Source of the DNA: a virus
UHGV virus genome: UHGV-1550212
Strand: one strand, 5' to 3'
Length of the DNA stretch: 64,000 nt
The stretch's first letter is position 1, and each line of letters opens with the position of its first letter. The notes beneath the pieces were generated by a model that saw only the letters and a program-made list of their open reading frames with translations, was not told the origin of the DNA and ran no database searches. A program made the position numbers and the translations under genes. Below, one piece after another: positions 13,525 to 60,716 of the stretch.

Positions 13525-15135
13525 TCAACATTCTACATACGAGCCATCAGTGTTTTCAACAAGCACTTTGATACTCAAGCTTACATCTGTGCCTTGTTGA
13601 CTTCTTATCAATGGCACAATGTCTTTTGCTTGCGGTGCAATATTGCCCATATTGTCAATGTGCTTGTCATTGCCAATGAACTGCACATCTACTGATTTGA
13701 TGACATCAAGCTCTTCAAGTTTTGCAATTGCAGCAGAACGACTAACGAATGTCGATGCATTTGACCAGGAGTCTTCTACAAACGCTTTTGCGGCATCAAG
13801 CAGTTGTTGTTTGACGTCTTCTATGTTTTGCAGTACTGCAGTCTTTTTGACAAGAATGAGCATTTGATAAAATTCAAGTTGCACAGTGTCAAATTGCACA
13901 TCAGTTAGCAGCACATAGTCACCAGTGTTTTCGATAGCATTGTTCAGATATTGTCTATCTGTAGAGTCAATCGTAAATTCTGCTATTGGCAATGACCAGT
14001 AGTCATACACTATTGAGCTCGCTTTGACATACTTGTCTGCAATGTTGGGCACCAGTACAACATGAATTGTCTGAGTCTCTGTATTTGACCAGACATCAAG
14101 TATCTTGTACTGACCAAAACGTGACATAAACGCCCTGATTGAATCTGCTGAGTGCAATACAAGCGCCCTGTTAATTGAACCTGCATGTGAACGTATTGAT
14201 TCGATGTCTTCACCATTGTAGCCGCCGACAATATCTGTCAGCTGTTCAATGACTAATACACCCTTTGGGCTTACAGCAGTAGTGTTTGCATCATACATGC
14301 CATTGACCCATTCAAATGTTGCGTCATTGTCAATCAAAATGTTTCCTGCATAGCCCTCACATGCAGTGTATTCTACATTGACAACTGCATTTTGTGCAGG
14401 AATTTGACCAGCAGTGCCATTGCCAAACACAATCTGTAGTTTGCCATCATATGACCAGCGTTCAATATACCCCTTGCTGTATCTGTCCATTTCATCAAAC
14501 CCTGCATAGCGAGTCCACAGCTCATTGCCAACTGTGACAGTCAATGAATCTTCAGATACAATCAAGTTGCGTTCTTCGATAGTGAATGTTGTCATTGACT
14601 CGCCATCAGAAATGTATTGCTGAGACTTGCGTTCACCTTGTCTGACTGCGAATTCATATCGTACACCCGTCAACTCATTGTTGATGTTGAGTTGCGCAAA
14701 GTCTTGATGCATATCGATGTAGTACATCAATGAGTTCTCTTTGCATTTAATTGCTGCATATCGTTTAATGAACACAGTTGGACCAAGCTCTTTGACTGCA
14801 TCATATGAAAAACTCAATGCAATTTTGCCTGATGCTGCAATGCCACCAACACATTTGTAACATGCAAGCTGTGCAAGTCCTCGTACAGATGCGGTCTGTT
14901 CTGCAGTAAGCAAGTTGTTTTCTTTTGTGCCTACTACAATTTGCGTAAAGATGAGTGACGCAAGTTCTCTGAAACTCTGAACAAGAATTCCAAAAATTGT
15001 GTACTTACCATATTGTTTCTTTGTAGAGTTCAGCAAATTCTGCAGCCAAGTATCTATAGACTGTGACACACCTGAATATGACATTTGCATTTTCTGCATC
15101 CACGTCATATTGTCACGAGTGTTATTTGTGCGCAT
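13525..15135 (-). CDS. baseplate J / gp6-like wedge protein
   Basis: GGYNGEDIESIRSHAG resembles the GG..E(S/T).E..R signature of baseplate-J proteins, and the size and context fit. Start ATG 15135 was chosen just after the ATACATATACAAAC motif. The tracked N-terminal extension to 15237 is translated 30-bp tandem repeat. Confidence 0.65.
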   Translation of the reverse strand: MRTNNTRDNMTWMQKMQMSYSGVSQSIDTWLQNLLNSTKKQYGKYTIFGILVQSFRELASLIFTQIVVGTKENNLLTAEQTASVRGLAQLACYKCVGGIAASGKIALSFSYDAVKELGPTVFIKRYAAIKCKENSLMYYIDMHQDFAQLNINNELTGVRYEFAVRQGERKSQQYISDGESMTTFTIEERNLIVSEDSLTVTVGNELWTRYAGFDEMDRYSKGYIERWSYDGKLQIVFGNGTAGQIPAQNAVVNVEYTACEGYAGNILIDNDATFEWVNGMYDANTTAVSPKGVLVIEQLTDIVGGYNGEDIESIRSHAGSINRALVLHSADSIRAFMSRFGQYKILDVWSNTETQTIHVVLVPNIADKYVKASSIVYDYWSLPIAEFTIDSTDRQYLNNAIENTGDYVLLTDVQFDTVQLEFYQMLILVKKTAVLQNIEDVKQQLLDAAKAFVEDSWSNASTFVSRSAAIAKLEELDVIKSVDVQFIGNDKHIDNMGNIAPQAKDIVPLIRSQQGTDVSLSIKVLVENTDGSYVEC

Positions 15136-15160
15136 ATCAGTTAATTTGTTTGTATATGTA

Positions 15161-15235
15161 TTCGAATGTGCACACATGAGAATAGGTCTCTTCGAATGTG
15201 CACATATGAGAATAAGTCTCTTCGAATATGTACAC
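15161..15235 (-). repeat. 2.4 copies of a 30-bp tandem repeat (TTCGAATGTGCACA(C/T)ATGAGAATA(G/A)GTCTC)
   Basis: Copies lie at 15161-15190 and 15191-15220, with a partial copy from 15221. Each holds the near-palindrome ATGTGCACAT. The array sits between terminator 15241-15266 and the J-like gene. Confidence 0.85.
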
Positions 15236-15240
15236 AAAAA

Positions 15241-15266
15241 GAAGAGCTTGCATATGCAAGCTCTTC
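15241..15266 (-). terminator. rho-independent terminator
   Basis: Perfect 26-nt palindrome GAAGAGCTTGCATATGCAAGCTCTTC followed by UUUUUG. Confidence 0.8.
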
Positions 15267-15308
15267 CATCACCAAAACCTATCTAATTATGGAAACACCT
15301 CTGAAAGG

Positions 15309-17447: not shown

Positions 17448-17948
17448 TTATGAAAGCTGAGCTGTAGTGTACCAAGTTAAGTCAGATTCATTGTACGTCA
17501 ATGCAATTGTAAGAGCTTGACCAAGTTGCTGTGACAATTGCTTACATGAATCAATGAATGCTTGCATATCTGCATATGACTTTGTGTAGAACATGCACCA
17601 TTCTGTTGTATTGACTGCGACATTATGAACATCTGCAAGATGACAGACTTCTACAGATGATACATTAAAGTCTGAGCCATCTTCATCAACATGATGCACA
17701 TTGTTTGCGCACCAATACTGATACAAACGAGCTTTGTCTGATGCAGTCATGTCAAACTGCATGCATTGAGCAATTGATTCATCGACATTATCAATGAATT
17801 GCTTTGCTGATTTTGACTCAAGCATCGCATGATGCAGTGTATAATTTGCATGCCAGTCTGGAGTGCCGATTGCTACGCTAAGCTGATTTTCAAACACAAA
17901 CTGCTGTGCTTGAGCTTCTTCGTAGCATTGTGTCCATGTCTTTGTCAT
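17448..17948 (-). CDS. hypothetical protein (166 aa)
   Basis: The tracked start at 17978 is TTG inside the promoter-like motif. ATG 17948 (MTKTWTQ...) is preferred. Confidence 0.65.
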   Translation of the reverse strand: MTKTWTQCYEEAQAQQFVFENQLSVAIGTPDWHANYTLHHAMLESKSAKQFIDNVDESIAQCMQFDMTASDKARLYQYWCANNVHHVDEDGSDFNVSSVEVCHLADVHNVAVNTTEWCMFYTKSYADMQAFIDSCKQLSQQLGQALTIALTYNESDLTWYTTAQLS

Positions 17949-17962: not shown

Positions 17963-17982
17963 GTTTGTATATGTACAAATAC
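17963..17982 (-). promoter_or_regulatory. late-type promoter-like motif (minus sense TATTTGTACATATACAAAC)
   Basis: It lies about 15 nt upstream of ATG 17948, directly after the sigma-gene terminator. Confidence 0.4.
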
Positions 17983-18012
17983 TGTTGATGTTGTATTGAA
18001 GCATCGCAAAAT

Positions 18013-18047
18013 AAGGCCAGACTACTCGGTTGAGCTTGTCTGGCCTT
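18013..18047 (-). terminator. terminator after the sigma-factor gene
   Basis: 10-bp GC-rich stem AAGGCCAGAC/GTCTGGCCTT with a 15-nt loop, followed by AUUUUG. Confidence 0.65.
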
Positions 18048-18065: not shown

Positions 18066-18962
18066 TTACAATGTTCCGCAAAGCAATTCACGTAAATCCA
18101 TGCCAGCTTGTGTACTATACTGAGCAATAAGATTACGTTCTGAATCAGACATGCTCCAATAAATCTTATGCTGAGCTCTACGAATAATAGTATGAATGCC
18201 AGATGTGCTACAATTGAACTTCTTTGCAAGTTCTGCATGAGTTAACAAATCCGCATCGCCAAGGCCATACACATGTGTGAGTACAAGCTTTTCATTTTGA
18301 GTGAGTTGTTCAAATGCTCTTTGCAGAATCTTTGTGTTGCGTTTGTGAGCATCCTCGATTTCAAGAACTTCTTGGCCTGTTTTGAAGTCTGACCTCAAAT
18401 CATTCTGAACTGGTGACCATGCATCACCATCTTTATCAAGTGTAGTGTCATCCTTACTGGTGAATTGTTTGCCTTCAAGAGCTCTTTCATATGCTCCACG
18501 AATACCAGTAGATAATTGTTGACTTGTCAGATTGAGTTCGTCAAGCACATATTTCTTAATCCAAGGATATGCATATGTGCTAAACTTTGCTTCACGAACT
18601 CCTGCAGGCAATACGCCTTCTACGTAATTCTTGGCTGCTATTGACAATCCAAGATTGCCTGCTTGAATGACGTCATCCAATGGAACCGAGCGTTTGCCAG
18701 ATGCGAACCATAAGCTTCGTGCAACTGATATGACCAATCTTAAACAAGATTTGATAAGAGCTTCACGATTTTCTTGAGTCTTCTTGAATCGAGTAACATC
18801 ACAATATCGCTTTGCAGTAGCCAGCGATTTGACTTCTTCAGGAGTAAGCTCATTCTCCATCCTCATTTGCTTGAGCTCCTCCTTTGTGTATAGACGTTCT
18901 CTTGTGATTCTACCTACGTCCTTTACGTAGCCTTGATTGATTTGTGAATTTGAACCTGCCAT
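18066..18962 (-). CDS. sigma-70-family RNA polymerase sigma factor (298 aa)
   Basis: Region 2 is LDDVIQAGNLGLSIAAKNY...FSTYAYPWIKKYV (compare DLIQEGNIGLMKAV...FSTYATWWIRQAI). The region-4 HTH is LTHAELAKKFNCSTSGIHTIIRRAQHKI. Its own terminator lies at 18013-18047. Confidence 0.85.
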   Translation of the reverse strand: MAGSNSQINQGYVKDVGRITRERLYTKEELKQMRMENELTPEEVKSLATAKRYCDVTRFKKTQENREALIKSCLRLVISVARSLWFASGKRSVPLDDVIQAGNLGLSIAAKNYVEGVLPAGVREAKFSTYAYPWIKKYVLDELNLTSQQLSTGIRGAYERALEGKQFTSKDDTTLDKDGDAWSPVQNDLRSDFKTGQEVLEIEDAHKRNTKILQRAFEQLTQNEKLVLTHVYGLGDADLLTHAELAKKFNCSTSGIHTIIRRAQHKIYWSMSDSERNLIAQYSTQAGMDLRELLCGTL

Positions 18963-19064
18963 GGTTGTGTAACTTATTTAGTTTTAATTTGTTATATAAA
19001 TTTAATCATTTTTTGTCACATGTGAAACGTTTTGCACATTATTTTCACATAAAGTGTAAAAAAG

Positions 19065-20123
19065 TTATGAACGTCTTGTTAACAATGCATGACCACAATC
19101 ATAAACTGCAACATAGCCAGTGTTAAGCATCTCTTGCTCATCTTGGCCGGCGTCTACAATATGTTCTTTGCTGTTAAGTTTGACCCAGTGCTTGCAGATT
19201 GTTGATTTATCATCTGACAATTTAGGGTTAATGCAGAAGTCTGTTGAGTTTATTGTGTTGTCGAGATGTTGTTTGATGACATCGACAACTTGCTCTGGTG
19301 TCATCCAATCAAACACTGTTATGCAAGTGTAGCCATATTTGAGAGCAAGTTGAGCTTTGTTGAAGTGATAGTCGAATGGAATTGGATGATTGTGTTTTGA
19401 TTTGCCAATTGCATATGCATAGCCATATGTAGAGTTGTGACTGATTGTTGGGCAAATTTCAATCAGCAAATGCTTATAATGCAGGTCATATGACTGGCGT
19501 TCAATATTGACGTCATCACAGTCAAATGCAAGCCCAAGTTCTTGTAACAGCAAAGTTTGCCATCGTTTGTTTGTAGCTGATATGACATTTTTGTGAGCAT
19601 TGCGACATTTTTGATGCATACAAAAGAATGGGACACCATATTTTTGCTGCATCAATTTAGTGTCAATGCCTGCTGCATTGCCATAACGTTCAAGCTTCGT
19701 TGCTCTAATTTTGTCAGCATCACCCCAAATGTTGCCATATCGTTTGCGCTTTGTGTCTTGAGACTTCTTAATGTTGCCACTGCGGTTGCCATAAATAAGT
19801 TCCTTTGATTGACACGCATGTTCAGCAGCATCTGGCCCATATATGTGACCGTATTTTTGAAGCTTAATTTCATTGATACGTTCTACTGGGCCATTTGGAT
19901 GACCATAGCGTTCTTGTTTGATGCGTTTTGTGTGCTCAATTGTTGACTTTAATGCAAGCTTTGACGTGACGCCAAATTTGCGCAAACAGCCTATTCTAAT
20001 ATTGAAACTACGTTTAATATGTGATGCTTCTATTTTTGTAACAGCCAATTGCAATGCATCATCACGTTCAGTTTCAAGCATGCAAATTTGTTCATCAATT
20101 GTCATAGCATCAAACCATTTCAT
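19065..20123 (-). CDS. freestanding homing-endonuclease-like protein, paralogue 1 (352 aa)
   Basis: Carries six tandem (K/E/Q)(R/K)YG-x3-G repeats followed by YDLHYKHLLIEICPTISHNS, which resembles Vsr/DUF559-type nuclease cores. The C-terminal region aligns closely with 48845-49876. Confidence 0.75.
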   Translation of the reverse strand: MKWFDAMTIDEQICMLETERDDALQLAVTKIEASHIKRSFNIRIGCLRKFGVTSKLALKSTIEHTKRIKQERYGHPNGPVERINEIKLQKYGHIYGPDAAEHACQSKELIYGNRSGNIKKSQDTKRKRYGNIWGDADKIRATKLERYGNAAGIDTKLMQQKYGVPFFCMHQKCRNAHKNVISATNKRWQTLLLQELGLAFDCDDVNIERQSYDLHYKHLLIEICPTISHNSTYGYAYAIGKSKHNHPIPFDYHFNKAQLALKYGYTCITVFDWMTPEQVVDVIKQHLDNTINSTDFCINPKLSDDKSTICKHWVKLNSKEHIVDAGQDEQEMLNTGYVAVYDCGHALLTRRS

Positions 20124-21690
20124 TCAACTTGTCAACATTCTTTTTGGCATCTGCACTTTGTACAAATGCATAGACGTTGTCATAGACTTTGCTAATTGCT
20201 GCATCTGTATAGTCATAGAAGTTGTGTCGAGTTCTTGAAGTTCTACCACCTTTGATGCCGAGTGATGTTTTGTCAGAATCTGATGGTTTCCAATATGTTC
20301 GCCCAAACCCAGTAGATAAAATCATACTTTCCACACCAGACCTATCTCGAGGCATAGCATGCTTCAAATGGCAAGTTACAATGAAGTCAGTTGGAAAGTC
20401 ATCATAGCCAAGCTCACTTGATGCAGGTTGAATGTCAGTTTTCGTCAAGATAAGATTGCCAATGCATGCAATTGGGCGAAGGGGATTTCCTAATAGCAAG
20501 TGCCATTCGCCGATGGCGTCGCCCTTCAACAAGCTATTCATAACAGGGATTGCTGGTCGACCAATAGTGTTCAAGAATTTTGCAACAGCAAAACGTTGAA
20601 ATGCAAGTTTAGCAATCTGCTGCAATTTTTGTTTTGCTGCTTCTTTTCCACCACCGCTTGCATTCATAATGTTTTGGGCAATACCTTTGAAGAAGTCTGT
20701 GATTGAGTTGAATGAACCATCAAGTGCATCTTGAATAACTGCAGATTCAAGTTCAAGCGCTTTGTTCCAGAATATTGAAGGCTGACCGCCGACCCAATAT
20801 CGGCCCCCACCCCAAAACTTTGCATCATTGTATGTGCATTGCATCACATTGCTCAACAAGTCAAGCATTGCTGTTTTGGGATTGATTCCATCAATCGACT
20901 TCAATGAATAAAAGAATTTGACAGTCAATTCATGTTCGAAGTTCAAACCAACATCACGAATATGAGTCTGCGTAATTGAATCAATCGGGCCATAAACTTT
21001 GTTATGGTCATGTGTAGGGTCTATTGACAGTCGTGCTTTGCCACGCATTTGGTCTTTTGCATACACTGGGTCCATCAATTTTGCCACTCGACCCATCCAG
21101 CCACTAATGCCATAATTACCTCCACTGTCACCACGCATTTCGCCTTGCTCCAATGCAGCAGATAATTCTTTCCAACGCATGCCAAAACTGAAGCTTAGCA
21201 AATCTTCAAGTTTGTTGTTTTCACCATCAAACCACGTAATCATATGGGCGATTTCTGGTGTTTGCTGAACTGTTGTGTTGAAGATGTCATCTTGACATGG
21301 CTCAGCAAATCTACGCAATGTGATGAGTCTGTTGTTCGGGATTTGGCCAAGAAATCTGCAATATGCAAAGTCTTGCCAATCATATGTTGATGCACCAATG
21401 GGGTTGTTGATGATATTTGCTGCAGTAGGCGTCAAGTATTGCAGGCCTTGCAAGTCTTGGTCAAAGTACACAGTTTTGCCATCAGGCAATTGCGGTGCTG
21501 CAAATAGATTCCATGCATTGAACAAAGACTGCACACCTTGTTTTGATGCATCTTCTGCACCACGAGGCATATCAGCATTGAGCTTCTTTTCATAAAAACC
21601 ATGCTCATAATCTGTTTCTTGTGCAAATGCGCCAGTCAGTGTGCTACTATCTGCATTAAGCTTATTGTCTTTTGGCGGAGCTATTGTAGC
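20110..21690 (-). CDS. hypothetical virion protein (526 aa)
   Basis: Long ORF. The tracked start at 21723 is TTG, so ATG 21690 (MATIAPPKDNK...) is preferred, downstream of the GGTACATATCC motif. Confidence 0.75.
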   Translation of the reverse strand, partial: ATIAPPKDNKLNADSSTLTGAFAQETDYEHGFYEKKLNADMPRGAEDASKQGVQSLFNAWNLFAAPQLPDGKTVYFDQDLQGLQYLTPTAANIINNPIGASTYDWQDFAYCRFLGQIPNNRLITLRRFAEPCQDDIFNTTVQQTPEIAHMITWFDGENNKLEDLLSFSFGMRWKELSAALEQGEMRGDSGGNYGISGWMGRVAKLMDPVYAKDQMRGKARLSIDPTHDHNKVYGPIDSITQTHIRDVGLNFEHELTVKFFYSLKSIDGINPKTAMLDLLSNVMQCTYNDAKFWGGGRYWVGGQPSIFWNKALELESAVIQDALDGSFNSITDFFKGIAQNIMNASGGGKEAAKQKLQQIAKLAFQRFAVAKFLNTIGRPAIPVMNSLLKGDAIGEWHLLLGNPLRPIACIGNLILTKTDIQPASSELGYDDFPTDFIVTCHLKHAMPRDRSGVESMILSTGFGRTYWKPSDSDKTSLGIKGGRTSRTRHNFYDYTDAAISKVYDNVYAFVQSADAKKNVDKLNEMV

Positions 21691-21731
21691 CATATCTTCA
21701 AATGTATTTAGGATATGTACCAAACAAACAA

Positions 21732-21758
21732 AAAGCTTGACTTATTCAGTCAAGCTTT
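21732..21758 (-). terminator. hairpin/terminator that overlaps the stop codon of 21742-22233
   Basis: 10-bp stem AAAGCTTGAC/GTCAAGCTTT followed by UUUGUUUG. Confidence 0.55.
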
Positions 21759-22236: not shown

Positions 22237-22866
22237 TTACAGATGCACATTTACACTTGTCACAAGGTCGCAATCAATCAATGCTTTGAGCGTGTCAATT
22301 TCATTGTAGCCAAATGCACTTGTAGCAGCAAGCACATGATTGACATCAACTGCAGCAGTAATGTCAACCACAACAGTTTTGTCATCTTCAAGTGGCTGCA
22401 AACGTTTAATGAGTTGATGCAGCATATCATCTGCCGGTATGCTTGGCTGTTGTGCAGATTCAGCAACATAAGTGGTTTTGACTGGCTGTTGCGCAGGATA
22501 TGCAGGCACTGGTGACACTGGTTCAACTGAGCGCTCAGTTTGTAGCGCAGCAACTGGCTGCGTTGGCAAAATTGTCTCTGACACAGTACTGCCATCTGCA
22601 GCAGTTGTAGTTACGCTTGGAATCACAATTGGCTGAGAGAACACGTCGTCTTGAGGACGATTCCAGGTTTCAATTTCAGACAATGCATAAAGACGATTTT
22701 GGTCATCCCATGCCTTATCAGCTTCTTCGTCAATTGCAACAATTGTTCGAATTTCTGCTGTTGCTGGCCTATCGCCATTTTCAAGTTGTTCAATGACTCT
22801 GATAGGCGCTATTGATGTTCGTGACATATTTGGATGGTTTTTTTTATATTGTACAACGTAAAGCAT
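22237..22866 (-). CDS. hypothetical protein (209 aa; alternative start 22827)
   Basis: ATG ORF. An internal ATG at 22827 is preceded by the TTGTACAATATAAAA motif, so the true start is uncertain. Confidence 0.6.
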   Translation of the reverse strand: MLYVVQYKKNHPNMSRTSIAPIRVIEQLENGDRPATAEIRTIVAIDEEADKAWDDQNRLYALSEIETWNRPQDDVFSQPIVIPSVTTTAADGSTVSETILPTQPVAALQTERSVEPVSPVPAYPAQQPVKTTYVAESAQQPSIPADDMLHQLIKRLQPLEDDKTVVVDITAAVDVNHVLAATSAFGYNEIDTLKALIDCDLVTSVNVHL

Positions 22867-22905
22867 GCATTTGCATCTGTGTACGTTATTTTTATGCTGA
22901 GCACT

Positions 22906-22956: not shown

Positions 22957-25900
22957 TTATCGTACGATGAATGGCTTGTTAGAGTCTTCAATAATCATTG
23001 AGCCGATGCCATGCAGCTCTTGAGTAACCTCGACAGATACATCTTGTGCAGTGTTGTATGAGCACTTGAATGCTGCAACTCGACTAAATGCGTCAATGTC
23101 TGAATAACTGAGTTCATCAACTTGTATTGAGATTTCACCAATTGCTGGCGCAGTCTTTGATGGTGTAATTGTGATGTCATGCAGCCAGCCCGGATTGCCA
23201 ACAATGACTGCAGTCAATGATTCACCATCAATTGGATTGACAACTTCATAATTGAAGCTCAAAGTCTTTGATGAGTCATCAGTTGTTGCTGACGCAGGCG
23301 TAATGTTGATTGTTGTTACGCCTTTCGCAGCCTGAACAATTTGTGCAGTAACATCTTGAGCATTGATGTGAGAGAACTTAACTGAGCAGCTACGTTGTTC
23401 TGTCGTTAAGTTGCGGTCACATTCAATAGTCAAGTAGCCTTTGCCTGTGTTATCATCATATTCGAAATTTGTGTCAGTGAATACGCCAGCTCCATTAAGA
23501 ACTTCATATGACAACTGCTGACCTGCAATTGGATTGCCAACAGTGACCTCAAAGACTGCTTGAGTATCTGTTGACTTCAATTGAGCAATAATCGGCTCAA
23601 CAGTTATTGTCGACACGCCTTGAGCTGCTTGTGTAATGTTGACTGTTACGTTGTCAGCAGTCATATATGACAGTCTCAAGTATAAGTTACGAGTAGCTGT
23701 TGCAGTGTTGATGTCAAGCGCAAATTGTATTGTGCCAGCTGACATATTTACTACAGGTTCGCCAACAAAGCCAGAGCCCTCTGCAGCAACTGTCAGTGTT
23801 TCGTCTTCAATAGGATTGGTGATGCTAAAGTTAACTGTAAACGAACCACCATTAGCTGCTGCGTTGATTGTCAGCGGTTCAGCATTGATGACTGTAGCTT
23901 CTTTAGCAGCCTGAGCAAGCGATACTGCTACATTGTCTGCAGTTGGATATTGTAGTACAATGTTTGCTGTACGAGTGCTTGTTTGCAATGTCTTGTCATA
24001 ATCAAATGTAATCTTGCCATCAGCAACTTGAACATTGTGAATCCAGCTTTTTGTTGCATATGCAGTGACTGCAGCACCAGCATAGCCATTACGAATTTGA
24101 TATGTAATTTCAGATGAACCGCCAGCAGCATTAAGTGACATAGAACTTGTGACAATGATTTCAGGCCTTGTTGATGCACTTGTGCTGTATTGAACTACAG
24201 ATGCAATTACACGAGGCTCAAATATGACAGCATTTGCAGAGCCGCCAAATGTCGGTGTTGCAATCACATAGATTGGCCAAACTCCACTTGATGCGACATT
24301 GCGTAAGATTGCTCGATAGTGCAGTTCATTGCATGCATCTTGCAATTCACTCCATGTTTTTGCAGTGTCAATTGTTGTCAAGCATGCAGGCAACACCGCA
24401 CATGTTGATGGCTTATCGGCGTCAATAGGTGTTGCATTGCCACTTGCTATTGGTTTGTAGCTCAAGTCGACTTTGACTGATGCATAACCATTGCCATACA
24501 CAATGAATGGCACAGTGATATCAAGCAAAATATCGACAGTTGCAGGCATGTTCAGATATGCTGGCAGCGGTACAAGCGTTTGCATTGCAGTAGCACCTGG
24601 CACATTGTCATCGAATGATTCAACATACACAGGTGGCGTCAAATCATCTTTGTGAGCATATTCTGCATGAGTGTGGTCTGAATGTGACACTGTGCTTGCA
24701 TAACCAGACCCAGCAAAGTCTTTATTGAATGCAGACTTCTTTGCTTCTTCAGTCAATCTGCCAGAGCCATCATATGCCAGCACAGTATTTGATGCGCCGA
24801 CACCTGCTGCAAGATGATTTGAGCCATCAATGAAGACATGTTTATATTGACGTTCAAACAAATGAGCATCAAAATTGTCAAATATCGAATTGAACAGCTT
24901 TTTGACTGCGGATGCTGTAGGCAGATGCTTGTTTGCATTTGCGCCATCAATGATGATACTTGCCCAATTGTCTGAGCTCTTGAAGATGCCAAGAAGCATA
25001 TCGATGACTTTGCCAGTAGCGTCTGTGCCAAGAACACTTGCACCAGGCAGTTTCATCAATTGTAAGTCGACTGTTGCAGCAAGTTTAAGCAACTGCTTTG
25101 TCAATGTCAGAATGTCTGTGACAACTCCAGCATCTGACAATGCTGCAATGCGATATGACTGATTGATGAGTTGCGCAAACTTATATGCACGAATGAATGA
25201 CTCTCGCTTTGCTTCTGCATCCAAGCCTTTTGCCAAGAACAACTCATCATATTTCAGATTTGCATATGACAATATGTCAAGCTCATTGACTGCAGATGTA
25301 AAATGATTGCGAAGTCTAATGCCCTCATATGATTGCCACAATGCAGCCAAATCAGCAAATGACTTGACATGTGAATCATCTGATGCAAAGCCAAACACAA
25401 GACCGCTGTTAAAGTCGTTTTGCAACAGCATATGTGGAAAAGCATCAATGCCTGGCAACTGATTCTTTTTGTCTGCATCAAGACGATTCAGTGTTCGTTG
25501 TGTGAGGTCGTAATAGTAATATGGATTGCCCAATATCTGCACAACTGGCTTTGCTGCTTTGTTGTTTGCATTGCCAAGACCATCAATTTGTGTATCACTC
25601 GGTGCAAGCAGAATAACTGAGCTGTCAACGTTATTGTATCGAGGCACACTTTCAAGCCCTATTGACAATGCGCCTGTATGCTTGTTTGAGTAGCTGTTGT
25701 CGATTTCTGCACCAGGCTGGCCATCTGCTGCAATGTTGAACATTGCTGCGTATGACTTGATTGTACCGCCGTACTTTGTTTTGATGAGCTCTTCAATGAT
25801 TTGCGTAATGATGACATTCAAGTTATCATTGTCACTTGTCAGCAATTGCAAGCCCGTAAATTGCCACCATTGCGCATCATCTGATGACGCGTCATACCAG

Positions 25901-26295
25901 TACACTTTGCCATCTGGTGCAATGACCCAGTCTGCGTATGACAAAGCATCTGTATGCAAAATGTTGCAAAACGCGGGTTTGTTTGCATCTGAACAGAACT
26001 CATTGAATGCTGCAGCATCGACAACTTTTGCAGTACCTGCGTCATTTTGCGTAGCTGACCAATCACTGCCAAATGTTGCATTGATATCAGCAAGTGATGC
26101 ATACATAATGCGGTTGCCTCGATAGCCATCGAAGCCAGGCAAACCGCGGTCACCAGTTTCACCAATACGACCCTTAAATAGGGGGGAATTCACAATTCTA
26201 CTGAAATTGTAATTCAAAATTTCACACAACTCTGCATAAGATGTGACTTGAAGTTTTTTCAGTACAATTGGCTGTGCTTTATGTTCTGCAGACAT
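22957..26295 (-). CDS. tail fibre protein with collagen-like motif and C-terminal BACON-like repeats (1112 aa)
   Basis: Contains the G-x-Y run GRIGETGDRGLPGFDGYRGN near the N-terminus and an HSDHTHAEYAH motif. Four C-terminal repeats of about 90 aa end ...V(T/S)V.(I/V)TQ(A/E)A.G. Confidence 0.85.
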   Translation of the reverse strand: MSAEHKAQPIVLKKLQVTSYAELCEILNYNFSRIVNSPLFKGRIGETGDRGLPGFDGYRGNRIMYASLADINATFGSDWSATQNDAGTAKVVDAAAFNEFCSDANKPAFCNILHTDALSYADWVIAPDGKVYWYDASSDDAQWWQFTGLQLLTSDNDNLNVIITQIIEELIKTKYGGTIKSYAAMFNIAADGQPGAEIDNSYSNKHTGALSIGLESVPRYNNVDSSVILLAPSDTQIDGLGNANNKAAKPVVQILGNPYYYYDLTQRTLNRLDADKKNQLPGIDAFPHMLLQNDFNSGLVFGFASDDSHVKSFADLAALWQSYEGIRLRNHFTSAVNELDILSYANLKYDELFLAKGLDAEAKRESFIRAYKFAQLINQSYRIAALSDAGVVTDILTLTKQLLKLAATVDLQLMKLPGASVLGTDATGKVIDMLLGIFKSSDNWASIIIDGANANKHLPTASAVKKLFNSIFDNFDAHLFERQYKHVFIDGSNHLAAGVGASNTVLAYDGSGRLTEEAKKSAFNKDFAGSGYASTVSHSDHTHAEYAHKDDLTPPVYVESFDDNVPGATAMQTLVPLPAYLNMPATVDILLDITVPFIVYGNGYASVKVDLSYKPIASGNATPIDADKPSTCAVLPACLTTIDTAKTWSELQDACNELHYRAILRNVASSGVWPIYVIATPTFGGSANAVIFEPRVIASVVQYSTSASTRPEIIVTSSMSLNAAGGSSEITYQIRNGYAGAAVTAYATKSWIHNVQVADGKITFDYDKTLQTSTRTANIVLQYPTADNVAVSLAQAAKEATVINAEPLTINAAANGGSFTVNFSITNPIEDETLTVAAEGSGFVGEPVVNMSAGTIQFALDINTATATRNLYLRLSYMTADNVTVNITQAAQGVSTITVEPIIAQLKSTDTQAVFEVTVGNPIAGQQLSYEVLNGAGVFTDTNFEYDDNTGKGYLTIECDRNLTTEQRSCSVKFSHINAQDVTAQIVQAAKGVTTINITPASATTDDSSKTLSFNYEVVNPIDGESLTAVIVGNPGWLHDITITPSKTAPAIGEISIQVDELSYSDIDAFSRVAAFKCSYNTAQDVSVEVTQELHGIGSMIIEDSNKPFIVR

Positions 26296-26312: not shown

Positions 26313-26328
26313 CTTTGTATATGTATCG
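26313..26328 (-). promoter_or_regulatory. late-type promoter-like motif (CGATACATATACAAAG)
   Basis: It lies about 18 nt upstream of the fibre-gene ATG 26295. Confidence 0.4.
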
Positions 26329-30204: not shown

Positions 30205-33200
30205 TTATTTGTGTACTTTTATGCCTGCGCCTTCAAGCAATTCGAAGATGTCAATCAATATCGACATTACAGGATTGTCTGGGTCATCTGCAAATTCTGC
30301 ATATTTATCAGCGCCTTCTATAGGATTGTCTGCTGTGCCAAGTTTAAGCATTGGTTGATTTGCAATAGATGGCGTAGGCATTGCATTCATTGAACTGAAC
30401 TCATTCTGTTCATAGTTCTTTTTCAAGAATGTATCAAGAGTATCAAACAGTTTCTTAAGCGACTGCACCAGCGGCCCTTCAATGGTTGCTGCAACTTGTT
30501 TGAGTCCTGCAATCATTTCTTGTGATTGCAATGATTTATATTGAATGTCGAGCTTTGTCAGTTTTTCGAAGTTGAGTGAATTGATTGCAGTTTGAATGTT
30601 CTCAATGTTTGTTGCAGTAGATTGCAGTTCTTTATTGCGCTTGTCAAGGTTGCCATCAGCAAGAACATCAAAGAATGCGTCAAGAGATTTACCAACTGTT
30701 TGCACTCTATATGTGTTAATGCCTTGCATGCCATCAAACATTGATACGATAGCGCCTACTGCAGCTTTTGCTGTTGGTGCAAATGTCTTTTCAATGTAAT
30801 TGACATCAAGTTTTTGTTGCGAGAAGCCTGTTATGAGATTGACAAGTGGGTCAAGTATTGTGCCAATTCCATCAAAGCCAGCTTTTGCTTGTCGCATACG
30901 CTTCTTGAAATCTTCACGTTCAGCTGCGTTTATGCAAGCATTTACAAGAGAATCAATGACTGATTCAAGGCCTACACCAACTTTTGGCAATGCTTCAGAC
31001 AAATCAATTGTGCCGACAACTACGAGTTCACCATTTCGAGCTTCATATTTTGGGAACACAAGAGTCGCCATGCCCTTAATGCCCTCTGACAATTGATATA
31101 TGAGATTGCCAAGACCTGACAGCGCGTTGATTGCTTTCTTAGCGCCCTTTGCTTTGTCTTCAACGCCATCAAGAGCATTGACCATGACCTCAATGAATGT
31201 CGCAAGATTATTGCCAATGCTTACAAGTTCAGCGTCAGTCAAATTAACTTCTGACATTGTTTTGATTGTCTTTGCAAAGCTAAGCATCGACAAGCCAACA
31301 GCGCCAAGTGCTGCAGCGCCAGCAAGCGTAAATGGTAATGTGAATGGGTTGCCTGTCACAGTAGCAACGCCTACAAGAGCTGCAACAGTGCCAGCAATTG
31401 ATGCAACATCAAGGTCTTTGACTGCCTGCATCTTTTCAAGTGCAGCCGCAAAAACATATGTTGCTGCACCAGTAGCAGCCATTGCAGCTGCACCAAGCAA
31501 TGCAAGTGGACCAACCAAGCCAAGCGCAGTTGCTGCAGCAGTTACAGTAACTACAAATGCACCAAGTGCAAGCATTGTAGTGCCATCAACAGATTGAGCT
31601 TTGACAAGAGCGTTTGCATACATTGTAGTGCCGACTGCAGATAATACAAGTGCAGCGCCACCAAGCAATGCAGTCGCGCCCATATTGCCCAGAATTGCGA
31701 TTGCGCCAACATTTGCTGCAATAAACAAGCCCATCATGACAGCAGTCTCACCATCAACAGCATTTGCAATCAACAATGCGCCAGCAAGCAATGCAACGCC
31801 AACTGAGGTAATTATAAGCGCACCAGCAGCCATAAGCGGCGAGCCCTTGCTTGATAGAGCCATCAATGCTGCAAGTGCACCAGTTACAACTGCAAGCGCT
31901 GCACCAGCTTTACCCATGTCTTCCCAATCAAGCAGTTTGTAGGGCAACATTGCAATGCCAAGAATGCCAACTGCTGCAGCCATCACAATAACACCAGTAG
32001 CAATTGATAGCACTTGTTTGCTATCTTTTGCTACTCTTGTCATAACTGCAAATATCGTAGCAAGCACACCAATCCCAAGTGCAGCCTTGCCCATGTCTTC
32101 CCACTCAACAATTCGCCAAGCAAATATGCCAAGTGCAAGTGCACCAACCGCTGCAGCCATAGCAAGCACGCCTACACCAAGCTTTTGCATATCGCCATCT
32201 TTGCCAGCAAGACGATTTGCACCAGCCATTGCCAATGCAAGTGTAGTAATTGTTATTGCAGGCGCAAATGCATATGTGTAATCAGGTATGAGTTCATGCC
32301 AAGCCCAAATTGACAATGCAAGCACCGCTATTGAACCTGCAATCATCATCATTTGAGCACCGATGCCACCCTTAAGATTTGAGCCCTCTGTCTGCATTTT
32401 GCTGAATGCATCAGCATTGCCAGATAGCTTCATACCAAGGCCTGCACCTGCAGATGATATGCCATTTGCAAAGCCGATTGCAAGACCCAATGCAACAATG
32501 ACACCAAAGATTAAGCCAACAGATTCCCAGCTTGCTTCCATCAATTCACCTGCAGCAACCACTGCAAGCACAAACAGAGCAATTGAGCCTGATAGCATCA
32601 GCATTTCTTTGCCCACTGCATTCTGCTGTCCTTTCTTGCCGCCTGAACCAAACAGCGATTCACCAGACAATGCTTTGCCAAGCACCCATATTGCTCCACT
32701 GACAGCAAGCAAAGCAACTGAACCCATAACAACACCACTCCATGATACATTGCTAAATAGCATCATTGACAATGCGACCATGCTAAGCGCGCCTGCAATC
32801 ATCATGACATTCTTTGCACCAGCTGATGCATCTTTGTCAGTGATTTTGCCAATTGCCCAATATGCTGCAATGAATGTCAATGTGCCAAGCGTGAACATTC
32901 CAAGAGCTTCAAATGTCACAAGTTGACCAAATGACCATATTGTAAGACCCACAAGAGCAATTGCTGCAGCAGCTTTCATGACAACCTCTGTCGTTCTATC
33001 AAGAGATGCCACAAGTGATTCAACTTGGCTGACCATGTCAGCCACTGCAGTCATTGACTCTTTATGAGATTTCAGAGTTTCAGCAGCTTTCAAATACGAA
33101 TCGACAAGCTTATTCAAGGCAGCCTCAAATCTTGGAGCAGCCTTTTCAAGCCTGTCGACAATCAAATCGATAGCTTCAAGACCGCTTTCAAGCTGCAATC

Positions 33201-33918
33201 GTTTGACAGGCGACATATTTGTCAAAGAGTCAATGATTGTTGCAAAAGCAGTAGCTATCGTGCCCATTTTTGGGTCAATGTTGGGCGCATTGCTTGCATT
33301 GGCCTTGCTGTTTGCGATTGAGTCTTTTTCTTGACGTTCTGCAATGACGTCTGCAAATGTTGTCAGGTCATCAAGTTTTGATGACATCAATGCAAAGATG
33401 TTGCGTTGATTTTCCTCGATAACTTCAAGATAGACTCTTACAAGGTCACAATGTTGTGTAAATTCAGTATGTTGTGATTCAACATGCTCTGCAATCACAT
33501 CAAGCAAAACAGAAGCATCTGATATGTTTGTTGCAGCAGCTTTGTTTTCAATATGCTCTGCAATGATTTCAAGCAATGCGTTTGTGTCAGACAATAATGC
33601 AGATACTGATGTTGCTGAAGATGATTCGTCTGTTTGCAGTTCAGATATGATTTGAGCAAGACCTGCAAACATATTTGTTTCTGCACTCGAATCTTTTTCT
33701 TTCCATGATTGATACAAAACTGCACCAACAGTTGAGCACAATGACGCAACAATAGTGTCGTTGCCAACAATTGACATGAAAGTGTTTTCAAGCTTTGTCA
33801 GCTCATCATCACTGACATCAGTCGAAGATGCTGACGACGTGTCAGCATCTTCGAACTCTTGCCAGTTTGTTGGCTTGTCGCCTGTAGAATCGTAGACGTT
33901 TGTTTTGTCTTCAGCCAT
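30205..33918 (-). CDS. tape-measure-like protein (1237 aa)
   Basis: Helical N- and C-terminal regions flank about 20 Ala/Gly-rich hydrophobic helices with an internal duplication (...WEDMGKA... occurs twice). Size and position fit a tape measure protein. Confidence 0.75.
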   Translation of the reverse strand: MAEDKTNVYDSTGDKPTNWQEFEDADTSSASSTDVSDDELTKLENTFMSIVGNDTIVASLCSTVGAVLYQSWKEKDSSAETNMFAGLAQIISELQTDESSSATSVSALLSDTNALLEIIAEHIENKAAATNISDASVLLDVIAEHVESQHTEFTQHCDLVRVYLEVIEENQRNIFALMSSKLDDLTTFADVIAERQEKDSIANSKANASNAPNIDPKMGTIATAFATIIDSLTNMSPVKRLQLESGLEAIDLIVDRLEKAAPRFEAALNKLVDSYLKAAETLKSHKESMTAVADMVSQVESLVASLDRTTEVVMKAAAAIALVGLTIWSFGQLVTFEALGMFTLGTLTFIAAYWAIGKITDKDASAGAKNVMMIAGALSMVALSMMLFSNVSWSGVVMGSVALLAVSGAIWVLGKALSGESLFGSGGKKGQQNAVGKEMLMLSGSIALFVLAVVAAGELMEASWESVGLIFGVIVALGLAIGFANGISSAGAGLGMKLSGNADAFSKMQTEGSNLKGGIGAQMMMIAGSIAVLALSIWAWHELIPDYTYAFAPAITITTLALAMAGANRLAGKDGDMQKLGVGVLAMAAAVGALALGIFAWRIVEWEDMGKAALGIGVLATIFAVMTRVAKDSKQVLSIATGVIVMAAAVGILGIAMLPYKLLDWEDMGKAGAALAVVTGALAALMALSSKGSPLMAAGALIITSVGVALLAGALLIANAVDGETAVMMGLFIAANVGAIAILGNMGATALLGGAALVLSAVGTTMYANALVKAQSVDGTTMLALGAFVVTVTAAATALGLVGPLALLGAAAMAATGAATYVFAAALEKMQAVKDLDVASIAGTVAALVGVATVTGNPFTLPFTLAGAAALGAVGLSMLSFAKTIKTMSEVNLTDAELVSIGNNLATFIEVMVNALDGVEDKAKGAKKAINALSGLGNLIYQLSEGIKGMATLVFPKYEARNGELVVVGTIDLSEALPKVGVGLESVIDSLVNACINAAEREDFKKRMRQAKAGFDGIGTILDPLVNLITGFSQQKLDVNYIEKTFAPTAKAAVGAIVSMFDGMQGINTYRVQTVGKSLDAFFDVLADGNLDKRNKELQSTATNIENIQTAINSLNFEKLTKLDIQYKSLQSQEMIAGLKQVAATIEGPLVQSLKKLFDTLDTFLKKNYEQNEFSSMNAMPTPSIANQPMLKLGTADNPIEGADKYAEFADDPDNPVMSILIDIFELLEGAGIKVHK

Positions 33919-35221: not shown

Positions 35222-35289
35222 ATTGTAATGTATTTGAATGGTTTTGAATATGTATTTGAGATGTGCACACATTGAAAATATCACACAAA

Positions 35290-36585: not shown

Positions 36586-36615
36586 TGTGCATGAATGTTC
36601 AATATGTAAATTCAC

Positions 36616-36629
36616 TATATGTACATATA
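36616..36629. promoter_or_regulatory. perfect palindrome TATATGTACATATA, a candidate bidirectional late promoter between terL and HE paralogue 2
   Basis: It lies 24 nt upstream of terL ATG 36653 and 31 nt upstream of HE ATG 36585. The same core precedes many structural genes. Confidence 0.45.
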
Positions 36630-36652
36630 ACACGAATATTCAAGTTAGATGC

Positions 36653-38644
36653 ATGGCTGAAGTCAAGAATCAAGTGTTTAATCCAGTAGCACAATTCAAA
36701 TCTGCTGAAGAAAAAGAAGCTGCGAAAGTTATATGGTGCAGTGAATCAGTCGCAATGGCATATGATGCAGTTGACCAAGGCTTGCCACTTAGAGCAAATC
36801 CGTGGTTCTTTGGCAATATTGCACTGCGTAAGCCCGGATTGCTATACAGATACACTGACATAGAATTGCGTGAATGGCTTAGATGCAAGTATGACATATT
36901 ATATTTTGCTGACACATGGTGTCAGATTTTAACTCCAGATGGCACAAGAAAGCATTTTAATTTGAGACCATATCAACGCAAAATGCTGCGTGCATATCAA
37001 CGACAAAAGTATACGATAGTTCTTACTGGGCGACAAGTAGGCAAAACGGTCGTTACATCAGTATTTCTCGCTTGGGCAGTCATTTTCAATCGTGAGCTTA
37101 ACATAGCAGTACTTGGCGACCGCTTGGCAACATCAAGTGAAAACCTGAACAAAACAAAAGACATCATAAACAATCTGCCGTTCTTTATGAAGCCTGGTGT
37201 GTTTGTTTGGAATGGCGGAATGGTCGCATTTGACAATGGTTGCAAAATTATCACAGGTACTGCTCAAAAGTCATCACTTGTCGGTAAGACAATTCACATC
37301 TTATATCTTGATGAGCTCGCAATTCCACCTGCTCAGCAATCAAAGACTCTTGTAGATTATGCATTGCCAACAATTGCGTCATTGCCAACTGGCAAAGTTA
37401 TCGTAACATCTACGCCATCTGGTGATAATGTGTTCAAGACTTTGTGGCTTGGTGCAATTAACAAAACAAATGGCTTCTTTCCAATTCAAGTAAACTGGTG
37501 GGATATTCCTGGCCGTGATGAAAAGTGGAAAGCTGAGCAAATCGCAATTCTTGGTGAAGATGCTTTCAATGAGCAATACAACTGCGTGTTCTTGTCAGGT
37601 GCAACGTCAATTTTCAATTCAAGAGCAATTGATGATATTGCAAGACGACAGCAAAAGTATGAATTTGTTGCTGATGAGCGTCTTGAATCACTACTCAGAT
37701 TCTTCATTGCTGATTCAGATGTCGGCACTGAACCCGAGCCGCACTCATTTATGACTTGGCGTGCAGATATTGACCCAGCAACACTCAAAAATGAAACATG
37801 TATCATCAATATTGACATTGCTGAAGGTTTATCTGGCGACTTTTCTGTCATACATGTGCATCGTATAGTTGACATTACAAAAGATGTTGAACTTGAACTT
37901 GATGCAAGCAATCTGTATGATATGTTTGACGATGACAAAAAATCATTGTTTGCAAAAGCAGTTGAAATGCAACGTCAAATGTCAGCAACACAAGCTCAAG
38001 ATGATGACGATGATGACGATGACGACTGGTTTGGCGCAGACGATGATGTCGCTCAAGGCGTTGATGCATATCAAGATTATGCGAATGCTGCAGTAGAAGA
38101 GATTGGCTTATGGCGTTCAAATGTGACATCAATCAAAGTCATGGCTCTGTATTTGCAGTTCTTAATGACGTATGTGTTTGATGCAAACAAAACAAAGATT
38201 ATCTATGAACGCAACAAATATGGTGGAGAGTTTCGTTCATATTGTTTGTCTGAACGTGCACGCAATATTGCAATTGATGAAGAGAGCTTCGTAAGCTTCC
38301 AACGAACTCTTGGTTCAGAACAACTTGCACCAGGCTGTTCAATTACGCCTGGCACCAAACCAGTGTACGTAAGACAGCTCAAAGACCTTATTGAAACTGG
38401 CAAGATTCTTGAAAACAATGCAGATACGCAAAGAGAGCTTACATATTTTGGCGGTGTCAAAGGCAAGAATGGTCACGTGTCATATCAGGCGTCACCTGGC
38501 TTCCATGATGACATTGCAATGACTCTTGTATCTCTTGCAGCATTTATGGACACTCGATGCAATGACTGGCTTGAACTGCTTGATGTGTTCTACAATGGCA
38601 GCAGTCAAACAAGTTCTGATGATGACGATGATGACTGGATTTGA
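36653..38644 (+). CDS. terL: terminase large subunit (663 aa)
   Basis: Walker A is VLTGRQVGKT and Walker B is ILYLDELA, with a T4 gp17-like layout. ATG 36653 was chosen because the tracked 36425 start overlaps the opposite-strand HE gene. Confidence 0.9.
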   Translation: MAEVKNQVFNPVAQFKSAEEKEAAKVIWCSESVAMAYDAVDQGLPLRANPWFFGNIALRKPGLLYRYTDIELREWLRCKYDILYFADTWCQILTPDGTRKHFNLRPYQRKMLRAYQRQKYTIVLTGRQVGKTVVTSVFLAWAVIFNRELNIAVLGDRLATSSENLNKTKDIINNLPFFMKPGVFVWNGGMVAFDNGCKIITGTAQKSSLVGKTIHILYLDELAIPPAQQSKTLVDYALPTIASLPTGKVIVTSTPSGDNVFKTLWLGAINKTNGFFPIQVNWWDIPGRDEKWKAEQIAILGEDAFNEQYNCVFLSGATSIFNSRAIDDIARRQQKYEFVADERLESLLRFFIADSDVGTEPEPHSFMTWRADIDPATLKNETCIINIDIAEGLSGDFSVIHVHRIVDITKDVELELDASNLYDMFDDDKKSLFAKAVEMQRQMSATQAQDDDDDDDDDWFGADDDVAQGVDAYQDYANAAVEEIGLWRSNVTSIKVMALYLQFLMTYVFDANKTKIIYERNKYGGEFRSYCLSERARNIAIDEESFVSFQRTLGSEQLAPGCSITPGTKPVYVRQLKDLIETGKILENNADTQRELTYFGGVKGKNGHVSYQASPGFHDDIAMTLVSLAAFMDTRCNDWLELLDVFYNGSSQTSSDDDDDDWI

Positions 38645-41732: not shown

Positions 41733-41759
41733 TGTATCAAATATTTGTATTTGTAAGTT

Positions 41760-49876: not shown

Positions 49877-49905
49877 ATGTCATTTGTGTAAATGTCAACA
49901 AAAAT

Positions 49906-56022: not shown

Positions 56023-56040
56023 ATTGTCGAAATCTTGTTT

Positions 56041-60701: not shown

Positions 60702-60716
60702 GCAAATATATTTTTG

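Follow-up and report, generated by a model that had tools for sequence, protein, structure and literature searches.

The results presented here concern a 64,000-nucleotide (nt) stretch of viral DNA, UHGV virus genome UHGV-1550212 (hereafter, the window), which represents the leading 64 kb of the ~176-kb genome of a T4-superfamily phage from gut metagenomes, and, within it, a gene for a sigma-70-family factor (18066–18962, minus strand) and the promoters that this factor might read. An earlier, sequence-only reading of the window had described the sigma gene, had described a conserved motif upstream of structural genes, and had paired the two: that is, had proposed that the sigma factor reads the motif. 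We find that the window contains three classes of promoter-like element, class A (the motif of the sequence-only reading), class B (a bipartite element), and class S (an element preceding the sigma gene). All three classes are non-random and conserved in relatives, with class A partitioning with virion genes and class B partitioning with replication genes. We propose, with moderate confidence, a cascade in which the host sigma factor acts first, the phage sigma factor then acts on class B, and a gp55-like factor then acts on class A. The pairing of the phage sigma factor with class A is the less likely of the available assignments.

Database and fold comparisons indicate that the sigma gene, which has an ATG start and encodes 298 amino acids (aa), specifies a genuine two-domain (sigma2 + sigma4) sigma-70-family protein. 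The open reading frame (ORF) scores above cut-off with both Pfam Sigma70_r2 (33.2 bits; cut-off 24) and Pfam Sigma70_r4 (26.2 bits; cut-off 24.1), matches PHROG 351 'RNA polymerase sigma factor' (expectation value, E, 5e-25), with PHROG 234 unmatched, and has exclusively sigma factors both as best sequence matches and as best fold matches in the PDB; with PDB primary sigma factors it aligns over regions 2.1–2.4 and 4.1–4.2. The AlphaFold model contains a helical sigma2 at ~residues 56–147 (predicted local distance difference test, pLDDT, ~75–80) and a sigma4 at ~residues 200–280 (pLDDT 80–88), with residues 147–194 disordered. The earlier description of a complete sigma factor with regions 2 and 4 is thus borne out. 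This protein has no folded region 3 (sigma3) domain, and the alignment there is ~25–30 residues shorter than for cellular sigma factors; a sigma3 domain is found in sigma factors of groups 1–3, and family membership does not need it. The protein has an N-terminal extension of ~55 aa and, after region 4, a clade-specific C-terminal tail. When regions 2.4 and 4.2 are aligned with sigma-70 and the PDB primary sigma factors, both regions align and contact residues are changed: in region 2, FSTYAYPWIKKY aligns to FSTYATWWIRQA of primary sigma factors, in region 2.3–2.4, FSTYAYPWIKKYVLD is present in place of FSTYATWWIRQAITR, and Y430 and W434 (sigma-70 numbering) are retained.

We compared the window with related contigs L001, L004, and L005 (sigma proteins 55–58% identical), with related contigs L015, L016, and L017, and with phages PAU, MA9V-1, and PTm1; the whole PAU genome was assembled. 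Close homologs of the sigma protein (55–99% identity) occur in metagenomes only, and the next matches are cellular sigma factors at ≤28% identity. Orthologs are present in gut-metagenome contigs (55–79% identity), in PAU (gp1; 31% identity; E 4e-20), in MA9V-1 (MA9V1_023; 28%), and in PTm1 (ORF168; 28%), and PAU gp1 and the phage sigma factor have in common the sequence AKFSTYAYxWIKKY in region 2.3–2.4. A BLASTP comparison of the sigma ORF with T4 gp55 finds nothing, and a local hidden Markov model (HMM) of 20 gp55 proteins matches neither the sigma ORF nor any other ORF in the window.

Class A, with consensus rTACATATAnAAAC, is enriched in the window by each of three measures. GTACATATAC with ≤1 mismatch occurs 14 times, as compared to 2.4 expected, a count reached in 0 of 100 shuffles; GTACATAT is found six times within the 4.45 kb of intergenic DNA and twice within the 59.6 kb that is coding; and a weight matrix for which 11 sites from relatives were the sole training set finds eight window sites of at least 15 bits, as compared to 0.35 expected, a count reached in 0 of 300 simulations. 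K-mer enrichment and this weight matrix replaced our own zero-or-one-occurrence-per-sequence expectation maximization (ZOOPS-EM), which, on 100-nt upstream regions, returned a weak composition motif and called nearly every region (expected-sites fraction at the 0.95 cap). Class A orientation follows the genes, the first base of class A lies 26–39 nt before the ATG at 10 genes, and terminators directly precede class A sites at five places. The genes preceded include the baseplate wedge gene, the large-terminase gene terL, large tail/fibre-like genes, and orthologs of PAU structural-block genes. No conserved −35 element accompanies class A: that is, there is no information upstream of the class A block. 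Class A also contains neither element of Bacteroidota primary-sigma promoters, −33 TTTG and −7 TAnnTTTG (consensus as cited in PMC7366714). In proposing a conserved motif near structural genes, shortly upstream of start codons, often directly after a terminator hairpin, and unlike the Bacteroidota consensus, the sequence-only reading was therefore correct, and its interpretation of this phage-specific motif, which precedes structural genes and terL, as a late promoter is the best reading of the motif.

The individual class A sites are on the minus strand, except for one divergent pair. The sequence GTACATATACAAAC is present both at 17963–17976, 28 nt before the ATG of 17448–17948 (22.5 bits; orthologous site in L001 and L005), and at 60716–60729, after the terminator at 60732–60765 and 28 nt before an ATG at 60701 (22.4 bits). 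GTACATATCCTAAA at 21707–21720 follows the terminator at 21729–21758, lies 27 nt before the ATG of 20110–21693, and has orthologs in L001 and L005. Upstream of the wedge gene there are two copies: ATACATATACAAAC at 15148–15161, 26 nt before the ATG (15135), with orthologs in L004, L005, and at PAU gp17, and GTACATATTCGAAG at 15220–15233, after the terminator at 15236–15267. Between these two copies is a 30-nt tandem repeat (2.5 copies; 15161–15236), and what had been listed as ATGTGCACAT variants at 15161–15235 are copies of this repeat; L005 and L004 have unrelated short tandem repeats beside late promoters too. ATACATATACAAAG at 26313–26326 lies 31 nt before the ATG of 22957–26295 (1112 aa). 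ATACATATTCAAAA at 35242–35255 lies 34 nt before the ATG, at 35221, of a 340-aa gene ending at 34199; a variant listed at 35262–35275 is to be replaced by the real site nearby, ATACATATTC at 35246–35255. At 36611–36634, two overlapping class A promoters on both strands form the palindrome TATATGTACATATA and face, divergently, the ATG of terL (36653, plus strand) and the ATG of a homing-endonuclease gene (36585, minus strand); the perfect palindrome reported at 36616–36629 is exact over its 14 nt. The ORF at 35290–36585 matches DUF7487 and homing-endonuclease PHROG 3339. GTACATATAACACA at 56040–56053 follows the terminator at 56056–56085 and lies 31 nt before the ATG of 54427–56022, an ortholog of PAU gp67; class A also precedes the orthologs of this gene in L015, L017, and PAU. 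Three further sites that had been listed are amended. That at 2943–2960 is present as GTACACATATACAC at 2943–2956, before 2305–2919, and is a one-insertion variant (GTACACATATAC; 10.4 bits). That at 701–712 is a copy of the motif, with no gene within 120 nt; the gene-poor, repeat-rich stretch that holds it (507–1380) also holds homopolymer runs of C10 (616–625) and G9 (924–932). That at 22842–22857 is a promoter-like site, belonging to class B rather than to class A.

Class A is observed in relatives of the phage, both in the gut clade and in PAU. In L001, L004, and L005 taken together, class A occurs at orthologous places, before genes for the 1441–1623-aa head-fibre-like protein, the ~520-aa protein, the ~170-aa protein encoded after sigma, and the baseplate wedge protein. 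In the PAU genome, TATACATAT occurs 37 times, 36 of them on the gene strand, and ATACATAT lies 20–48 nt before the ATGs of genes for portal, prohead protease, major capsid, tail sheath, baseplate, endolysin, and internal capsid proteins. The established consensus of the T4 late promoter is TATAAATA (Geiduschek and Kassavetis 2010). The PAU form of class A, TATACATA, is identical to this sequence at seven of eight bases, and the window form, rTACATAT(A), matches it at six of eight positions if the first base is A.

PAU and MA9V-1 encode gp55-type factors in addition to orthologs of the sigma factor. PAU gp112 (L019:32850–33317) matches the local gp55 HMM with E 3e-7, MA9V1_140 (L026:30939–31442) is a homolog of gp112 (phmmer 9e-12), and the two proteins match PHROG 234 'late sigma transcription factor' with E 1e-6 and 4e-6, respectively. 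Both genes are positioned after the DNA polymerase gene and a gene for a ~420–460-aa protein. The two proteins are published as 'gp112' and 'hypothetical protein', the gp55-type function being unannotated. In each phage, the gene upstream of the gp55-type gene is preceded by a class-A-like element (ATACATAC in PAU; TATACATAAAC in MA9V-1).

Class B has the consensus TGCAAA-N16-TAyNAT, with GTwG immediately before the second hexamer. On the gene strand, GTwGTAyNAT occurs seven times in the window, as compared to 1.3 expected, and 25 times in PAU, as compared to 4.9 expected. Each of the 19 gut-clade sites has, upstream of TAyNAT and at a distance of exactly 16 nt, a box of TGCAA type, in most cases TGCAAA; in PAU, AACTGAAACTT is present at fixed distance in 23 of 25 sites. 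The full bipartite pattern occurs nine times in the window, as compared to 2.3 expected, a count that includes a tandem triplet at 59964–60109 and a site at a tRNA cluster. The layout of class B is that of a sigma-70-type promoter: a −35-like hexamer, a fixed spacer, and a TAnnnT −10 element. Neither of the host elements, TTTG at −33 and TAnnTTTG at −7 (PMC7366714), is present. The genes preceded by class B are replication, nucleotide-metabolism, and tRNA genes, and the GTwGTAyNAT block recurs before the same genes in three further contigs, L015, L016, and L017; before the clamp loader gene, class B is present in these contigs and in PAU too.

All class B sites in the window are on the minus strand. 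TGCAAA-N16-TACAAT is present at 22848–22875, before 22237–22827 (orthologous sites in L001 and L005), and at 57750–57777, before the topoisomerase II gene (56298–57719). TGCAAA-N16-TACTAT is present at 44442–44469, before 43974–44417; TGCAAA-N16-TATCAT is present at 48828–48855, before the clamp-loader gene (47794–48768); and AGCAAA-N16-TATCAT is present at 53752–53779, before the gene for a 1199-aa protein (50111–53710), an ortholog of PAU helicase gp68. Three tandem sites at ~50–70-nt intervals (59964–59991, 60032–60059, and 60082–60109) lie upstream of 59161–59880 (239 aa). TGCAAA-N16-TATTAT at 62399–62426 lies upstream of a seven-tRNA cluster (61161–62334, minus strand) that comprises tRNAs for Gly, Thr, Glu, Ser, Leu, Pro, and Gln. 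An ARAGORN call of a permuted transfer-messenger RNA at 60727–61169 (minus strand), which overlaps a class A promoter and terminator, is probably false. The class B −35 hexamer, TGCAAA, is also contained in tandem and dispersed repeats of GATGCAAAATGCA type at 711–875, 41758–41833, 26361, and 48795 (28-, 33-, and 34-nt periods; identity up to 100%), which could be decoy or binding arrays.

The sigma gene has no class A or class B promoter of its own; it is preceded by class S, which, in the window, occurs only there. The class S element (18991–19027, minus strand) comprises TTTCACATGTGAC (19015–19027), 9 nt, and TTAAATTTATATAAC (18991–19005), in a layout of −33 TTTC, a 19-nt spacer, and −7 TAAATTTA: that is, a near match only to the Bacteroidota consensus. 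A class-S-related element precedes the sigma gene in every relative, including L001, L004, L005, PAU, MA9V-1, and PTm1, and in MA9V-1 (TATATTTG) and PTm1 (TATTTTTG) the −7 box is a perfect TAnnTTTG. In MA9V-1, the two-block element occurs ~20 times, mostly preceding small genes, with extra conserved bases (CAyATGTC) beyond the host consensus. From these sequence features, class S reads best as a host-type, early promoter class. A palindrome, TCACATGTGA, lies at 19016–19025, within the −33 region of the sigma-gene promoter, and the same CAyATG block is conserved in the ~20 early-type MA9V-1 promoters, which suggests an operator or extended recognition element beside host-like boxes. TAnnTTTG occurs 32 times in the window vs. 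29 expected: that is, without enrichment. A perfect host-type −7 box, TATTTTTG, at 49899–49906 (minus strand) follows a hairpin and lies 30 nt before the ATG of 48845–49876, a gene that encodes 343 aa and adjoins the clamp loader gene; this box may mark a second promoter of host type within the window.

The surroundings of the sigma gene are conserved as well. A terminator-like hairpin, AAGGCCAGAC-loop-GTCTGGCCTT followed by TTATTTT (18008–18047, minus strand), lies directly 3′ of the gene, having been missed by a simple terminator scan because its loop is 15 nt, and L001, L004, and L005 have a strong hairpin with T-tract at the equivalent place; the sigma gene thus has its own terminator, as the sequence-only reading had stated. 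It was correct also in placing the gene among structural genes: the baseplate wedge gene (13525–15138, minus strand) lies downstream and a tape-measure-like gene (30205–33918) lies upstream. The synteny, comprising a gene for a ~500–550-aa protein, sigma, genes for ~170-, ~150–180-, ~440-, and ~130-aa proteins, and the baseplate wedge gene, is conserved, and neighbours of the sigma gene are orthologous to PAU gp269, gp14, gp17, and gp21. In this phage only, a 352-aa ORF (19065–20123, minus strand), absent from L001, L004, and L005, splits the gene for a 527-aa protein from the sigma gene; it has a repeated (K/R)YG motif, matches no family, and is probably a mobile, homing-endonuclease-like insertion. 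In a scan for terminators between the class A promoter at 21720 and the sigma gene (18962), none was seen; with a strong terminator after the sigma gene in four phages, late transcription of the sigma gene is therefore also possible.

According to the cascade that we propose, class S would allow host sigma-A to transcribe the sigma gene; the phage sigma factor, on host core polymerase, would read class B by placing sigma4 at TGCAAA and sigma2 at TAyNAT; and a gp55-type minimal sigma factor, encoded outside the window, would read class A, which would be the clade's version of the T4 late promoter, assisted, by analogy with T4, by a gp33-like co-activator and the sliding clamp. Read-through that starts at the class A promoter at 21720 would add late transcription of the sigma gene, which would fit the capsid-internal annotation that the PAU depositors gave to its ortholog. 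The RpoD-like two-domain sigma factor is assigned class B, whose bipartite layout calls for sigma4; a gp55-like factor is assigned class A, whose one block is similar to the T4 late promoter. With three promoter classes and three sigma proteins (host sigma-A, RpoD-like, and gp55-like), the mapping is economical.

Several points weigh against this cascade. Each assignment of a factor to a promoter in it is one that we infer. The AlphaFold model of the sigma factor has a mean pLDDT of 63: that is, moderate confidence only. Region 2.4 is altered (W433P, Q437K, and T440L), and region 4.2 has STSGIHT instead of TRERIRQ, with the −35-contact residues R584, E585, and R588 all replaced, so that recognition of TGCAAA by the sigma factor is not predictable; judged from sequence, its DNA-contact residues are too diverged for prediction of specificity. 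The class B analog in MA9V-1, TTGTGTAyNAT, which follows terminators, has no obvious −35 box. Class S alternatively parses as a weak class-B-like element, TGACAA-N16-TATAAC, and the sigma factor might therefore autoregulate instead of depending on host sigma-A. A gp55-type gene of this phage was found neither in the window nor in the 10 kb beyond its start (genome ~176 kb), the latter containing small genes and a gene for a UvsW-like helicase. An alignment-based locus search for a gp55-like gene returned PAU and one 363-kb contig only, a degenerate DNA pattern for FFTTT..N.L.AGWN returned PAU only, and an alignment search with DNA polymerase returned 14 loci, 0 of them from this phage; PAU gp111 and MA9V1_139, at 21% identity, are too weak to serve as a search seed, and for the protein encoded at the right end of the window no record exists. 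A 155-aa ORF at 46807–47274, considered as a gp55-like gene for its size and a weak match to L016, is not a homolog of PAU gp112.

The pairing made by the sequence-only reading, with the phage sigma factor as a late sigma that reads class A, (T)GTACATATAC(AAAC), with host core polymerase, we consider unlikely. It accords with the position of the sigma gene amid motif-bearing genes, conserved across the clade, with the separate host-like promoter expected if sigma must precede late genes, with the phage-specific sequence of class A, unlike the host consensus, and with the lack of a gp55-type gene in the part of this phage searched (window plus 10 kb); furthermore, Johnson et al. 2015 proposed that a phage RpoE-type sigma might replace gp55/gp33 in PhiM9 (PMC4621102). 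However, class A lacks a −35 block although region 4 of the sigma factor is retained and well folded, a single base separates the PAU form of class A from the T4 late promoter, both PAU and MA9V-1 encode a gp55-type factor in addition to the sigma ortholog, and the pairing would leave class B, strongly conserved, bipartite, and with an invariant 16-nt spacer, without an obvious reader. Assigning class B instead to the host primary sigma, alone or with a MotA/AsiA-like activator, and assigning to the phage sigma factor class S or promoters outside the window, is quite doubtful. TAyNAT fits the generic TAnnnT −10 rule usable by any primary sigma, and T4 middle promoters, which have a box plus −10 layout, are comparable; class S, for its part, is bipartite, is very abundant in MA9V-1, and has the extra conserved CAyATGTC. 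Against this assignment, class B has neither host element, TTTG at −33 or TTTG in the −7 box, class S is the closer of the two to the host consensus, and no MotA- or AsiA-like protein was detected among the ~50 window proteins scanned. A further alternative, in which class A is not a promoter and is instead an RNA-processing site, a translational operator, or a dimeric-regulator site, is very improbable: the palindromic core, TGTACA, and the tight 26–39-nt spacing to start codons, which could reflect a role in the mRNA leader, are to be set against the frequent position of class A right after intrinsic terminators, where a new transcript must begin, the strand bias (36 of 37 copies in PAU), the asymmetric flanks (AAAC on the 3′ side only), and the likeness to T4 late promoters in sequence and in genes preceded.

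It is likewise unlikely, in our estimate, that the sigma factor is a virion protein, either made late, packaged, and delivered with the DNA, redirecting host core polymerase to class B or class S from the first minute, or merely a structural or moonlighting component of the capsid. In PAU record JQ362498, gp1 bears the label 'internal capsid vertex protein (mango) subunit 2', with gp10 labelled as subunit 1, and Hua et al. 2017 note structures on the inside of PAU capsids, under the vertices, whose description is left for a later report (PMC5646251). The sigma gene is inside the virion module in all relatives, and it ends a unit opened by a late class A promoter with no intervening terminator; PAU gp1 (94–1182), moreover, is preceded by both classes, with class B and class A elements (219304–219340) ~135–160 nt upstream, across the ends of the linear record. 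As to the virion location itself, however, what can be cited is solely a database annotation; the PDB holds no entry, and our literature search found no paper on the PAU 'mango' vertex protein. Next to the sigma gene of this phage, no homolog of PAU gp9 or of PAU gp10 ('mango subunit 1') was detected. The PAU vertex structures are seen in empty capsids, which argues against ejection; AKFSTYAYxWIKKY is conserved in both PAU and this phage, which speaks for a protein that works as a sigma and against one that is purely structural; and the host-like promoter conserved ahead of the gene points to the protein being made early in the cell. The specific form of this idea, in which a virion-packaged sigma enters with the DNA and reprograms core polymerase to phage bipartite promoters before phage gene expression, we regard as quite improbable. 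The cascade of host sigma, phage sigma on class B, and gp55-like factor on class A is the reading that we retain in what follows.

The phage itself is placed in the clade of the Bacteroidota-infecting phages PAU, PTm1, and MA9V-1. T4-superfamily membership is supported by the terminase, clamp loader, and baseplate wedge genes, and terL (36653–38644, plus strand) has, as closest relatives, Chryseobacterium phage MA9V-1 (40% identity), Tenacibaculum phage PTm1, and 'Sphingomonas' phage PAU. The true host of PAU is Sphingobacterium, a member of Bacteroidetes, according to White and Suttle 2013 as cited in PMC4621102, and the cultured relatives therefore all infect Bacteroidota; a faint BACON-domain match on one window protein points in the same direction. 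With this host for PAU, the argument that motif conservation across host phyla proves phage-encoded readers was dropped. The window coincides with the initial 64 kb of a 176,073-bp ENA gut-metagenome contig, ERZ27261301:k119_106340, to which a 175,564-bp IMG/VR contig, IMGVR_UViG_3300045988_149023, is 99% identical and circularly permuted; near-identical DNA is absent from the phage collection (megablast of 7 kb of the window; 0 matches). Most window genes are on the minus strand.

The transcription programmes of Bacteroidota phages are almost unknown, and in the literature that we searched there is neither a transcriptome nor a promoter study of this clade, nor a published virion proteome. 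The hosts have an unusual promoter grammar, and T4 or SPO1 solutions therefore cannot simply be copied. The proposed three-tier promoter map, comprising host-like, TGCAAA-N16-TAyNAT, and T4-like late elements, covers the clade, including cultured phages PAU, MA9V-1, and PTm1 and abundant gut phages, and is usable for annotation of transcription units and for timing of genes of unknown function. The analysis also corrects a tempting inference: a sigma gene beside a motif need not read that motif. A capsid-internal sigma ortholog, a database-only claim, would, if true, be a new mode of host-transcription takeover; packaging would then explain both the position in the virion module and the late read-through, and sigma might enter with the DNA.

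Phage sigma cascades, as in SPO1 and T4, are well established. The present system resembles T4 late transcription, which involves gp55 (a minimal sigma), gp33 (a co-activator), and gp45 (the sliding clamp), also beyond the likeness in sequence: class A consists of one −10-type block unaccompanied by a −35 element, class A precedes head, tail, packaging, and lysis genes, and gp55-type proteins are present in relatives PAU and MA9V-1. It differs in that the class A core has C where T4 has A, in that the gut clade often replaces the first TA (GTAC) and conserves an A-rich AAAC tail, and in that gp55/gp33 genes are not seen for this phage in the window plus 10 kb. With the cascade of Bacillus phage SPO1 (gp28, then gp33/gp34), the likeness that we infer is a phage sigma, made from a host-type promoter, that switches core polymerase to a phage bipartite class; the differences are that the cascade proposed here would join an RpoD-like two-domain sigma to a T4-type gp55 system, and that it operates in Bacteroidota, with their own TTTG/TAnnTTTG promoters. 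Class S resembles those Bacteroidota primary-sigma promoters in its TTTC-N19-TAAATTTA, its MA9V-1 and PTm1 counterparts matching the −7 box perfectly, whereas class A and class B match neither element.

Among phage proteins, the closest parallels are PAU gp1, MA9V1_023, and PTm1 ORF168, with 28–31% identity, PHROG 351, synteny by the baseplate-wedge block, and AKFSTYAYxWIKKY; the gut-clade sigma is shorter (298 aa vs. 362–387 aa) and differs in region 4.2, and the class B −35-like box is AACTGAAACTT in PAU vs. TGCAAA in the gut clade. In architecture only, the phage sigma resembles group 4 (extracytoplasmic function, ECF) sigma factors, having sigma2 and sigma4, a flexible linker, and no sigma3. 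Two-domain ECF-type sigma factors need both promoter elements at fixed spacing, which parallels class B; the phage sigma differs from them in resembling groups 1/2 in sequence and in having an N-terminal extension and a C-terminal tail. A virion-delivered sigma, if true, would be a functional analog of the virion RNA polymerases of N4, phiKZ, and crAss-like phages, using the specificity subunit only. Sigma factors of the 'minimal' and of the 'complete' kind are both known from group 2 jumbo phages, PTm1 included (Iyer et al. 2021; PMC7824862); the genome here, at ~176 kb, is under the 200-kb jumbo threshold, in contrast to group 2.2 jumbo phages. We conclude that the phage sigma factor is a further member of the known 'complete' phage sigma factors, and that the promoter grammars that accompany it appear previously undescribed for this clade.

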